Shown here: one piece after another, positions 8,887 to 11,830 of the stretch
Layout of the letters: every line of letters starts with the position of its first letter
How positions within the stretch are numbered: position 1 is the stretch's first letter
Assembly: GCA_048623335.1 (NCBI GenBank)
Contig: JBMCBU010000001.1
Span: 1-45,973 of the forward strand
Direction of reading: 5' to 3'
DNA length: 45,973 nucleotides
Source of the DNA: Halapricum sp.
GTDB taxonomy: Archaea; Halobacteriota; Halobacteria; Halobacteriales; Haloarculaceae
The notes under the pieces: model-generated
Databases searched by the model: none
Seen by the model: only the letters and a program-made list of their open reading frames with translations
Told to the model about the DNA's origin: nothing
Made by a program: the position numbers and the translations under genes

Positions 8887-9708
8887 TCACTCTGCCTGAA
8901 GCAGATTCTGGGCGACGCTCGCCAGTTCGTCCGCACTGGCCTCGATGAGTTCGTCTGCGCCGAACTTCAGGCGGAGTCGTGGCCGTCCGACGTCGATCGG
9001 GACCTTCTCGGTGTCGATCAGTCCCTGGTCTTCGAGTTGTGTCTTCGTCCGCGAGAACGTGGCCTTGCTCGCGAGGCCGATGTCCTCGCCCCACTTGCTG
9101 ATGTCGTACAGCAGTTCGCCGTTCTTCGCGGCGACCAGTAGACTGATCGTCACTTCGTCGAGCCCGTCTCCGTTTCCTCGGGCTGTCTCGAGCGAATCGA
9201 GCACGTCGTTGAAATCGGCCACGACGTCTTCGCCGATGTCCCGTTCGAGCGTCTCCCGGACCCGCGAGATGGGGGGTGTCCGAAGCTTGAACCGCTTTGC
9301 GACCTCCCACTCACTGGTGTAATGATCGTATGCGTCCGTCACGAACGCTTCGTCCGTCGTCGCCAGGCCGGCGACCATCTCGTCCGCCGTGGCCAGTGAG
9401 ACGACAGAACCCCTCGAGACCAGCAGCGAGTTGACCGGTGGATCTTCGAGCACACGCAACGTGAGGGTATCCGCTTCGATCAGGTCGGCTGCGGCACTCG
9501 CGACGAGGAAATCGTCCATGACGTCTTTGAGTGTCCGTTCCTCTGCGAGCACGTTGACGACCGGTGTGTCGTCTAGCCCCCCCATCGACGAGACGAGCGC
9601 ACGGACTGTCTCGTGAGAGGGATTGACCACGACCAGGTCGTCAACGTCTGCAAGTGTGGTTTCGAGTATGCTTTCAACGTCCGACTCGAGGAGGTTTTGG
9701 CTGACCAT
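8887..9708 (-). CDS. tbsP: Transcriptional regulator TbsP (DUF5821-like)
   Basis: C-terminal wHTH LLYDISKWGEDIGLASKATFSRTKT.LED.GLIDTEKVPIDVGRPRLRL, characteristic of the haloarchaeal TbsP family. Confidence 0.75.
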   Translation of the reverse strand: MVSQNLLESDVESILETTLADVDDLVVVNPSHETVRALVSSMGGLDDTPVVNVLAEERTLKDVMDDFLVASAAADLIEADTLTLRVLEDPPVNSLLVSRGSVVSLATADEMVAGLATTDEAFVTDAYDHYTSEWEVAKRFKLRTPPISRVRETLERDIGEDVVADFNDVLDSLETARGNGDGLDEVTISLLVAAKNGELLYDISKWGEDIGLASKATFSRTKTQLEDQGLIDTEKVPIDVGRPRLRLKFGADELIEASADELASVAQNLLQAE

Positions 9709-9905
9709 ATCGTATTACTATGTATTTCATCCGTGCATTTAATTGTATCGGTACGATTAGATTTATTTCAATAAAATATAAGGACAACGAAGATTCGAGT
9801 TACAGGACGTATATCCGCATCCCTCTTGAAACCCACGAAAGTGGATAAATACTACCCATCAACTCTTCATTCAGTAGTTTATTGTGTTATAAATAGTGAT
9901 AGATA
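9709..9905. promoter_or_regulatory. AT-rich regulatory region upstream of tbsP
   Basis: Strongly AT-rich relative to the flanks. Minus-strand attaaa TATA-like element at ~9738-9743, about 30 nt upstream of the tbsP ATG. Confidence 0.6.
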
Positions 9906-10007
9906 ACGGCGGTTGCTGTCGGTTCCTTCCGGATCGACCACGCCATAGAGAGTGCTCACAGCGGTCGCTGTGAGATGCCTGGTGTCCTAGGATCGGACAC
10001 ACCGGGA

Positions 10008-10273
10008 CAAAATAGGGTCGTGCGTCGTGAGCGCGACCACACAACCCCTTCGGTGCCCGGCTGCAGGCCCCCTGCTATCGGGGTAACAGTTCCGGCTGAT
10101 TCGCCACGATCCCGTGCTGGTGTCGGTAGCGTGCTATCGCGACAGCCGGCGGAAGTTGGTCAGCCAGACGCCCCCTCCGGCTTGAGGTTCTGTGAGTCGC
10201 ATCTCTCCTCGAGTTCGCGGACGGATCGCTCGTTCGCACAGTACTGTCACCCCCCAGGTGACCATGCGTTTGC
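10008..10273 (-). ncRNA. Candidate large structured non-coding RNA of unknown class
   Basis: Minus-strand TATA (aaatataag, 10301-10293). Long-range helix 10243-10267/10063-10090 of ~22 bp and helix 10160-10168/10091-10099 of 9 bp, both with G-U pairs that form only on the minus strand. Several hairpins, and a 3' hairpin followed by a U-tract at ~10009-10012. Confidence 0.6.
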
Positions 10274-10301
10274 TACGTGAACTAGTCACGCACTTATATT
10301 T
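10274..10301 (-). promoter_or_regulatory. TATA box plus palindromic operator-like site TGCGTG-N7-CACGTA
   Basis: Minus strand reads aaatataag-tgcgtg-actagtt-cacgta. The same layout recurs at 22433-22461. Confidence 0.55.
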
Positions 10302-10333
10302 GTTGATCGCGTGGGGCTGTCGGACCCGTTCTG

Positions 10334-10432
10334 ATAGGGATTAGCGTAGAACTCCATAGATTTCTCTCGGGAAGCCGCTATCCATCACCCGATCGGAGGT
10401 GGATTTCTCCGATCGGCTACGCTAATCCCTAT
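10334..10432. mobile_element. MITE-like repeat family A, complete 99-bp copy
   Basis: Perfect 16-bp terminal inverted repeats atagggattagcgtag (10334-10349) and ctacgctaatccctat (10417-10432). Non-coding, with three other copies in the window. Confidence 0.85.
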
Positions 10433-10508
10433 GACAGGCACCCGTTTCGCATCGGTCGCTCGACTACCGGCGGTCGACCAACAGTCGAGATCGGCCCGTC
10501 GATGTCCG

Positions 10509-10564
10509 AACGCTCTCGTGGTATCCGCGTTGAACTAACGCTCTCGTGGTATCCGCGTTGAACT
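10509..10564. repeat. Perfect tandem duplication, 2 x 28 bp
   Basis: aacgctctcgtggtatccgcgttgaact occurs at 10509-10536 and 10537-10564. Confidence 0.95.
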
Positions 10565-10591
10565 AGTTGTACATACGCGAAGCCCACAATC

Positions 10592-11362
10592 TCAGCTCGG
10601 ATCTTCGACCCGCTCTTCGCCCTCGAAGTGCGCGGAGTTGTCCTGTGGGTCGTATCCCAACACGTCGCGGGCGCGCTCGATGGAGTAGTACTTGCGGTCG
10701 TTGTCGCTGATCCCGTAGACGATCTCGAAGTCGTAGTCCGCCTCCAGGGCACGCTGGTGGATGTGAGCACAGTCGGGATAGGAGAGCCACATGGCCTGGC
10801 CGCGCTCGTAGTCGATCGGCGGGTGCCCGCGGGTGAGGTTGCCGATCCGGATGTTACAGACGTCGATGCCGTATTCGTCGTGGTAGTACCGACCGAGGAT
10901 CTCGCCGGTGGCCTTCGAGACGCCGTAGAGGTTGCCGGGACGGGGGAGTTCGGTCCCATCCAGCAGGAAATCGTCGTCCTCCCGGTACATCTCGGGGGTA
11001 CGCTCGTCGGTCTCGAAAGCCCCGACGGCGTGGTTCGAGGACGCGTAGATGAACTTCTCGACGCCTTCGGCGACCGCGGCCTCGTACATGTTCTGCGTAC
11101 CGTCGATGTTGTTTTCCAGGACGCTGTCCCAGGAGGCCTCGGGACGGGGGTCGCCAGCGAGGTGGATGATCGCGGAGACGCCCTCAACGGCGGCCCGGAC
11201 GAGCGCCTCGTCGGTGACGTCGCCGATCATGTACTCGTGGTCCGGTTCCTCGTCCGGCGGGCTGTGCAATAGCAGTCGCCACTCGTATTCTTCGGCGAGT
11301 CCCTCGAGGATCGCCTCGCCGACGCGACCGCCAGCACCCGTGAGCAGAACGGGATCGTCCAT
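10592..11362 (-). CDS. azf: NAD-dependent glucose-6-phosphate dehydrogenase Azf (extended SDR/epimerase family)
   Basis: TGAGGRVG, IHLAGDPRP, ASSNHAVG, NLYGVSK and YGISDNDRKYYS. Confidence 0.8.
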   Translation of the reverse strand: MDDPVLLTGAGGRVGEAILEGLAEEYEWRLLLHSPPDEEPDHEYMIGDVTDEALVRAAVEGVSAIIHLAGDPRPEASWDSVLENNIDGTQNMYEAAVAEGVEKFIYASSNHAVGAFETDERTPEMYREDDDFLLDGTELPRPGNLYGVSKATGEILGRYYHDEYGIDVCNIRIGNLTRGHPPIDYERGQAMWLSYPDCAHIHQRALEADYDFEIVYGISDNDRKYYSIERARDVLGYDPQDNSAHFEGEERVEDPS

Positions 11363-11488
11363 CGAGTGTATCTGTGCGACCGGCCAGTAAGTAAGATGCG
11401 GTTCGCCTCGTCAACGATCCCTGCTGGCCGATCACACTCCGGCCCCCAGGCCGAAGCGCGTTTGGTCACGCCCCCCGAGTACACGGGT

Positions 11489-11830
11489 ATGCCCACCGAC
11501 GCCCAACAGGCGTGCTTCGAGGCCGGCATCAAGTTCGGATCGCTGTACCACCAGTTCGCCGGGACGCCAGTCAGCGCCGAGAGTGCCGACAGTCTCGCAG
11601 GAGCGATGGAGGAAGCGATCGAGAACCAGCCCTACTGTGCGTCCGTGACCGTCGAGATCCGGACCGATGTCCTCGCCGAGGAGATCGAGGCGGGCAGCGC
11701 CGAGTACACCGAACTCACCGGGCGGTTCCTCGACGTCGAAATCGAGATCGCCTACGAGGATCGGACTGTCCTCGCCAGCATGGAGATGGAAGACGGATAC
11801 CCGCTGATGCGCCTCGACCGCGTCGAGTGA
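11489..11830 (+). CDS. mptD: Archaeal dihydroneopterin aldolase
   Basis: ACFEAGIKFGSLYHQFAGTPVS, AIENQP, YTELTG and GYPLM. Confidence 0.88.
   Translation: MPTDAQQACFEAGIKFGSLYHQFAGTPVSAESADSLAGAMEEAIENQPYCASVTVEIRTDVLAEEIEAGSAEYTELTGRFLDVEIEIAYEDRTVLASMEMEDGYPLMRLDRVE

Follow-up and report, generated by a model that had tools for sequence, protein, structure and literature searches.

What kind of sequence lies on the minus strand between azf and tbsP of this Halapricum genome, and why has it been kept? The window analysed here is the whole 45,973-nt stretch of contig JBMCBU010000001.1, in which the region in question is bounded by azf (glucose-6-phosphate dehydrogenase; 11362–10592; NF041293) on the upstream side and by tbsP (9708–8887; NF047393), followed by a YcaO-family gene, on the downstream side. 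The original prediction placed here an unannotated structured RNA of about 260 nt with its own promoter, either trans-acting or regulating tbsP and ycaO. The comparative data support a conserved, unannotated, structured RNA with its own promoter on the minus strand, the transcript itself being predicted, but its conserved core (10267–10063) is 205 nt long and it did not arise on its own: it is the 5' end of a deleted gene for a CHAT/caspase-like protein.

The layout with the gene in place is seen in the Halapricum genome G003 and in other genera, where glyA and a CHAT-like gene are transcribed divergently and the latter is followed by tbsP and ycaO. In the window genome glyA is found on another contig (C51), and azf stands where relatives have it. 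The interval between the azf stop and the RNA promoter contains repeats, namely a perfect inverted repeat of 16 bp that encloses another of 10 bp, and a tandem repeat of 28 nt (10334–10432 and 10500–10555), probably representing the junction of the azf-for-glyA replacement or the azf terminator region.

A DNA search in 41 relatives gave matches in 7 other genomes. Pattern searches returned 54 hits in genomes, 10 of them at this locus, and 19 hits in metagenomes, 11 of them at the locus; the remaining hits were dropped because they had no glyA, tbsP or CHAT match. The conserved 5' motif is the start (MVTWGVT) of a frame of 687–689 residues in G003 and G018. The matches of this parent protein to PF12770 are weak (E values of 0.006 and 0.001, below the cut-off) and no family was found in NCBIfam, and the frame carries HYIGHC and LNACGS, His and Cys motifs typical of a caspase-like fold. 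By homology, the element is the promoter-proximal remnant of this gene of about 690 codons, which occupies the glyA–tbsP interval in Haloarculaceae. It corresponds to codons 1–124 of the intact G003 gene, and overall it shares the promoter and the first 124–150 codons of the parent upstream of tbsP; neither a reading frame nor the catalytic domain survives at the window locus. A CHAT-like paralogue (33–36% identical) is present elsewhere in the other genus genomes searched, with no H2 match there (H2 is the hairpin described below). In some genera, at the loci L118 (1800–3465) and L119, the CHAT-like gene lacks the whole N-terminal part of about 150 residues, which is the region forming the RNA in Halapricum.

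tbsP is present in all 9 Halapricum genomes, and the coding region of the CHAT-like gene is missing at the locus in 7 of them (G000, G001, G002, G004, G005, G007 and G008), as it is in the metagenome locus L095. The gene is intact in G003 and in the loci L089 and L090. In G006 (L022, L018) it is frameshifted and split over two contigs in the assembly, and the 5' hairpin H1 is kept there without H2 and without the closing helix P1. Among 20 family loci picked by tbsP alone, the gene was found in 14, glyA adjoining tbsP without a remnant in 4, and neither in 2, and in a related genus the gene was lost with no remnant left (L107, L114, L115 and L120). In an unrooted tbsP tree of 9 sequences, the non-coding G004 is sister to the coding G003 with a support of 1.0, apart from the other non-coding copies. 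Given that the gene is ancestral according to the other genera, this grouping indicates that the coding region was lost at least two separate times.

In order to find what had survived these losses, we compared 11 distinct Halapricum sequences, which are mutually related. The TATA block, the 5' motif, H2 and the 3' strands of the helices P2 and P1 are kept across them, with exceptions for P1 in G001 and G004, and no part other than H2 and the 5' motif is shared by every copy. The TATA box (aaatataag; 10301–10293) is correctly placed in the original prediction, and it belongs to the promoter of the ancestral CHAT-like gene, now presumably serving the RNA. In 10 of the 11 aligned sequences an identical, gap-free distance separates the TA(T/C)AA block from GCAUG, and in G004 the block is 3 nt nearer; the spacing from TATA to AUG is 33 nt, matching the 34 nt of the tbsP promoter.

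The window copy is the shortest, and the copies with P1 in other genomes span 322–454 nt. The interiors of the non-coding copies range from 205 to 371 nt, the window copy being the most deleted, and they fold into clade-specific arms. Conservation stops after 10063, and beyond P1 alignment fails up to a point some 130 nt short of tbsP. A DNA profile built from the intact genes gave 14 weak hits, 12 of which fall inside the 5' domain and 2 of which are marginal hits beyond it (E values of 0.045 and 0.85). No conserved terminator was found. The predicted 3' hairpin with its U tract (10048–10009; minimum-free-energy hairpin 10048–10014 and UUUU at 10012–10009) is present in the sequence, but it is particular to the window genome and not conserved in the 7 other non-coding copies; it is a possible 3' end in this genome, to judge from its predicted fold.

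The longest helix joins the two ends of the core. P1 pairs GCA-U-GGUC-A-CCUG (10267–10255), which holds the former start codon (10265–10263), with CAGG-G-GGCC-UGC (10074–10063), which is where the intact gene has its F-x-G-P-A codons, and P2 pairs GGGGUGACAGU (10253–10243) with ACUGUUACCCC (10090–10080). This helix had been predicted with the right coordinates and is kept in 9 of the 11 sequences, with 92.4% of cells paired versus 35–46% with slid partners, but its covariation is not significant: none of 16 counted pairs has a two-sided change, 11 of the 16 vary on one side, and the shuffle control was not beaten (121 of 500), while one two-sided change in P1 was left out of the 16-pair count. 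Two of the 8 non-coding copies, G001 and G004, no longer have P1, and the local hairpin H1 is predicted there instead. H1 (GUCACC-UGGGG-GGUGAC; 10262–10246) excludes P1/P2. It is paired in 65 of 66 cells over the 11 sequences, and it is also found at the gene start in the intact genes of other genera, and is older. In the window copy the two folds are near balance, with pairing probabilities of 0.32 for H1 versus 0.35 and 0.62 for P1 and P2, and they are nearly isoenergetic (−94.2 versus −94.7 kcal/mol).

The hairpin H2 (10182–10144) has a variable, covarying outer stem, a small internal loop and the tip GUC-UGGCU-GAC-C (10169–10158). In 10 sequences, 11 of the 12 tip positions are invariant. 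For scale, the mean identity of tbsP four-fold sites is 0.53 and of 99 columns only 14 do not vary, with neither A nor T among them; these sites are nearly saturated, while the H2 tip is near-invariant. The pairing of the H2 stem is 88.8% versus 77.1% in shuffled alignments (reached by 0 of 500) and 17–48% in slid controls, and two-sided changes occur in 4 of the 8 pairs counted, or in 6 of 10 when the predicted pairs are taken, counts that overstate the covariation because the 11 sequences are related and come from one genus. The predicted pairing probability of the tip is 0.71–1.00 in 11 of 11 sequences.

H2 replaces several parts of the structure proposed originally. The 9-bp helix UCUGGCUGA/UCAGCCGGA is indeed complementary, but its mean pairing probability is 0.01; it uses the invariant H2 tip and competes with H2, which is kept in 11 of 11 sequences, and a partial counterpart exists only in G001, G002 and G005. 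The CCUC/GAGG stem gives way to H2 pairing, and the supposed pseudoknot AGCCGG/CCGGCU is in fact the nested base of H2. No conserved pseudoknot partner was found for the H2 loop, the best partners differing in place from copy to copy.

The fold of the window copy proves little by itself. The minus strand folds better than its shuffles (z −2.36, versus −0.15 for the plus strand), but this is unremarkable, since about 5% of random 205-nt windows of the same genome fold as well (12 of 229 reach z ≤ −2.4; the 205-nt core has −2.21). Reverse strands also fold well in several copies. In the anchored helices, G-U pairs outnumber A-C (37 versus 7) on the minus strand, on which the helices were defined. 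The sub-clade folds have large variable arms with two-sided changes in 17 of 103 and 9 of 64 pairs, and new compensatory changes arose inside the non-coding sub-clades.

These folds might instead be by-products of DNA-level sites, with H1 and the H2 tip serving as palindromic operators for transcription factors. The palindrome GTCACC-N-GGTGAC at the start site would suit an operator, as would the good folding of reverse strands and the fact that G001 and G004 keep nothing but H1 and H2. But the spacer of H1 varies between 4 and 6 nt, H2 lies 98–321 nt from the start, its flanks covary as a stem with G-U pairs, H1 is single-copy in the window genome, and the other occurrences of the H2 12-mer are codons for VWLT, VSQT or LADR, so we regard operators as quite unlikely. 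A multi-copy repeat or operator was rejected as well, because the excess of the H2 12-mer (35 versus 11 for the control) consists of codon strings in protein genes.

The intact genes are predicted to carry the same structure. The z values for the fold of the domain are −4.7, −7.8 and −8.6 in the three Halapricum genes that are intact; in fixed 300-nt windows G003 reaches only −1.8 and L090 −8.1. The synonymous divergence pS is 0.20, 0.25 and 0.06 in the domain versus 0.43, 0.44 and 0.25 over the rest of these genes (Fisher p of about 1e-5, 5e-4 and 4e-7, for pairs that are not independent). Seven pairs from other genera gave no consistent drop of pS (p 0.35–1.0 in the 4 tested). The downstream pN of 0.05–0.10 indicates that the CHAT-like protein is under purifying selection too. 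Across the whole coding region, the 5' end finds its best duplex at the F-x-G-P-A site in 3 of 3 intact Halapricum genes, and in none of the 18 other genes compared, whether intact or broken. From these comparisons, the constraint at the nucleotide level predates the loss of the gene, and the modelled folds suggest that the structure does as well. In L089 (2571–3024) and L090 (3000–3450) there is an in-frame insertion of about 27 codons compared with G003, folding as one long hairpin arm, which suggests that the RNA fold may shape the N-terminal sequence of the protein.

In species with the gene, P1 is predicted to pair the A and G of AUG with a probability near 1 and would thus bury the leaderless start codon, while the H1 fold would leave it free; the two are mutually exclusive over AUG, and an intact gene would make a dual-function transcript. 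The non-coding copies lack the controlled gene. The element could be a cis translation switch of the CHAT-like mRNA, open with H1 and closed with P1, that decays slowly as a leftover where the gene is gone; the burial of AUG, the loss of P1 in 2 of 8 non-coding copies, the uneven interiors and the heavily deleted window copy agree with it. Against a leftover, the H2 tip and the 5' motif are near-invariant in 8 of 8 non-coding copies despite near-saturated four-fold sites, fresh compensatory changes appear within non-coding sub-clades, and the sequence directly past P1 cannot be aligned. We consider this account unlikely, and prefer a stand-alone regulatory RNA, since the loss of the protein code left the predicted hairpins conserved.

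Could the non-coding copies still encode a protein? The 43-codon ORF (10265–10134) mentioned in the original prediction is correctly placed but not conserved. A small-protein gene would account for the AUG retained in 7 of 8 non-coding copies, but the retention of its A and G is explained by P1 pairing, there is no AUG in G004, the frames measure 43, 5, 5, 24, 5, 78 and 89 codons, and changes in the length of a G run shift the frame. This possibility is largely refuted by the frame loss, and we hold it to be most improbable.

A role as leader or attenuator on read-through into tbsP and ycaO, toggling between H1 and P1/P2, is another candidate. In every case the element precedes tbsP on its strand, and it stayed with tbsP when glyA moved; the energies of the two folds almost coincide in the window copy, and no conserved terminator was found. 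However, tbsP has its own conserved promoter, a separate feature at 9780–9737 with ACAATTAAAT at 9746–9737 and an upstream TGAAATAAA block at 9770–9762, and the TTACAT...TGAAATAAA block is found in this promoter region (minus strand, window 9790–9737) in 10 of 10 Halapricum sequences. Moreover, the spacer is unconserved over 270–450 nt, and about 1.9 kb separate P1 from tbsP in intact loci. There is no evidence for the proposed tie to tbsP or ycaO, and a leader function seems rather unlikely. The TGAAATAAA block resembles the motif WGAAATWAASTC published in a paper that describes TbsP (PMC11023807), which suggests autoregulation of tbsP by its product, as read from the sequence. A TbsP site within the element was rejected, because the motif as published there is AT-rich, unlike H1 and H2 (PMC11023807).

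How would the retained RNA work? Its function is most likely exerted in trans, since the element persists where the gene open to its cis control is gone, did not follow glyA to its new place, and has unconserved DNA and a second promoter between itself and tbsP. H2 is the likely active site, as only H2 and the 5' motif are common to all copies. One possibility is that H2 is a base-pairing seed, whose weak 3-bp tip opens so that 12–13 nt pair with an mRNA in the style of a classical sRNA. The invariance does run through the tip stem, and the mRNA of an HTH regulator (PF01381; G000, C9:505–516, L190; orthologues L186–L192) has a complementary site of 10–13 nt in 7 of 7 genomes compared, with duplexes of −15.6 to −28.9 kcal/mol. 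But this site consists of the codons for (V/I)SQT, the differences seen in G001 and G002 weaken the duplex instead of compensating, a control 12-mer occurs by chance about once per genome (11 in 9 genomes), and a 9-nt match to 23S rRNA in G002 is absent in G003. A seed is therefore doubtful. Searches of rRNA gave no conserved RNA target, and the one mRNA candidate is not compensatory, which is why we prefer a protein as partner.

We therefore favour, with a probability of roughly 45%, that the element is the retained 5' end of the deleted CHAT-like gene, transcribed from the old promoter and acting in trans through H2, with a protein as the most likely partner. A structured non-coding RNA would probably be transcribed from the promoter of the former gene; P1/P2 is predicted to close its 5' end onto the 3' boundary and to stabilise it, P1 perhaps acting as a protective clamp with a discrete 3' end nearby, and the near-invariant loop of H2 would be presented to the partner. 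The homology to the CHAT-like gene, the frame loss, the survival of promoter, H1 and H2 across two or more separate deletions and the constraint already present in intact genes are observed, and the loss of P1 in G001 and G004 and the absence of H2 in G006 are counterpoints. All readings taken together, it is likely that the element is a functional RNA of some kind.

Known RNA classes were searched for at the element. Rfam 15 gave one chance hit inside azf and none at the element (window 9000–11500, E ≤ 10), and among 9 homologous loci (E ≤ 1) a single hit, below threshold and outside the element (sot0042 at L027:1255–1388; 44.9 bits versus a cut-off of 88); ARAGORN found 0 genes. Box H/ACA guide RNAs, which have a K-turn or K-loop hairpin with a pseudouridylation pocket and a 3' ACA, were covered indirectly, by these Rfam scans. 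As the original prediction had stated, hallmarks of SRP RNA, RNase P RNA and tRNA are lacking: the helix-8 motif of SRP RNA, GAGGAANNUC and AACAGAA of RNase P RNA, and the T-loop and cloverleaf occur in 0 of 11 sequences, by which tmRNA was excluded as well. SRP RNA and RNase P RNA do share with the element a terminal helix between 5' and 3' ends and a multi-branch interior of similar size (predicted for the element), but they differ from it in their sequence hallmarks, and the element has no Rfam match and is restricted to one genus. Box C/D guide RNAs have conserved boxes C and D and a guide of 9–12 nt complementary to rRNA; here, box C-like sequences are found in 5 of 11 sequences at unrelated places, the best rRNA match is the 9-nt one in 23S rRNA of G002, absent in G003, and no conserved match supports an rRNA guide or mimic. 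In archaeal BHB introns a 4-bp helix is flanked by two bulges of 3 nt, one on each strand, and here there is one bulge of 3–5 nt on the 3' strand, with single-base bulges on the 5' strand and a helix of 4–6 bp between, so that this class was rejected too.

Outside the genus the element was not recovered in the genomes searched. An H2 model run over 141 family genomes, with no more than 40 candidates scored per genome, returned the 8 genus loci used to build it and 5 weak hits (E values from 8e-4 to 0.035) that fall inside unrelated reading frames, and nothing below E 0.57 was found in 22 loci without the H2 motif (G006 and other genera). The H1 pattern matched in 27 of 401 order genomes; among 20 new loci checked, 2 are starts of CHAT genes and none has the H2 12-mer. 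The search of viral contigs gave 0 matches. The conservation expected in the original prediction was thus found within Halapricum but not beyond it, and the element appears genus-restricted in the genomes searched.

Three of four features of an mRNA-derived non-coding RNA were found, namely homology to a syntenic coding gene, frame loss with the promoter kept, and constraint at the nucleotide level beyond what neutrality predicts. By analogy, the closest kind is that of mRNA-derived sRNAs of the StyR-3/OxyS type, such as the bacterial StyR-3, which has no sequence relationship to the element. StyR-3 is described as an sRNA derived from an mRNA 5' end, in a study giving a genus-level age for 61% of its sRNAs (PMC8825220). 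Like it, the element is non-coding, lies at the syntenic place of a decayed gene, is homologous to one gene end, keeps the promoter and has a genus-level age (PMC8825220). Unlike it, the element is archaeal, has a predicted multi-branch fold of 205–454 nt whose long-range closing helix covers the start codon, coexists in Halapricum with intact coding forms that show synonymous suppression, and went through at least two separate losses.

No description of the element's RNA was found in the literature covered, that outside subscription journals. STRG.86294.1, a 281-nt intergenic RNA of Halapricum salinum from a halite metatranscriptome, is called conserved and structured (PMC7002113). It resembles the element in genus label, length and this description, a comparison by description and not by sequence (PMC7002113). 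The element's motifs do not occur in two supplements of that paper, the sequence of STRG.86294.1 itself being in Data Set S1. Structure models were made there only from 14 or more database alignments, a requirement that suits a family broader than the element's (PMC7002113).

On our best reading, what is new is a genus-restricted candidate non-coding RNA, taken over from the 5' end of an mRNA and likely trans-acting through H2. Its reach is limited by the restriction to one genus, and the locus offers a rare natural series for the birth of an archaeal non-coding RNA gene, from a 5' hairpin only in other genera, through intact Halapricum genes with the full fold and the protein, to seven genomes with the RNA domain only. 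This makes the route of structure first and gene loss later directly testable, and it adds a new conserved RNA motif, H2, and perhaps a means by which a haloarchaeal caspase-like protein is controlled through the hiding of its start codon.

The UGGN bulge of bacterial T-boxes binds the 3' NCCA end of uncharged tRNA. It is conceivable, as a long shot, that the UGGC loop of H2 likewise binds a partner, for example such a tRNA end, and tips the balance of H1 and P1 over the AUG of the protease, as a ligand-gated switch in an archaeal coding region whose sensor outlived its gene twice in trans.

Within H1, GGGGGGUGA (10255–10247, minus strand) is Shine-Dalgarno-like, with a 9-nt pairing to the 16S 3' end of G002, and G001 carries the canonical GGAGGUGA at this position. 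It may be an internal Shine-Dalgarno-like motif just past the leaderless start, and a Gly codon GGG is kept at its place in the intact genes of other genera.
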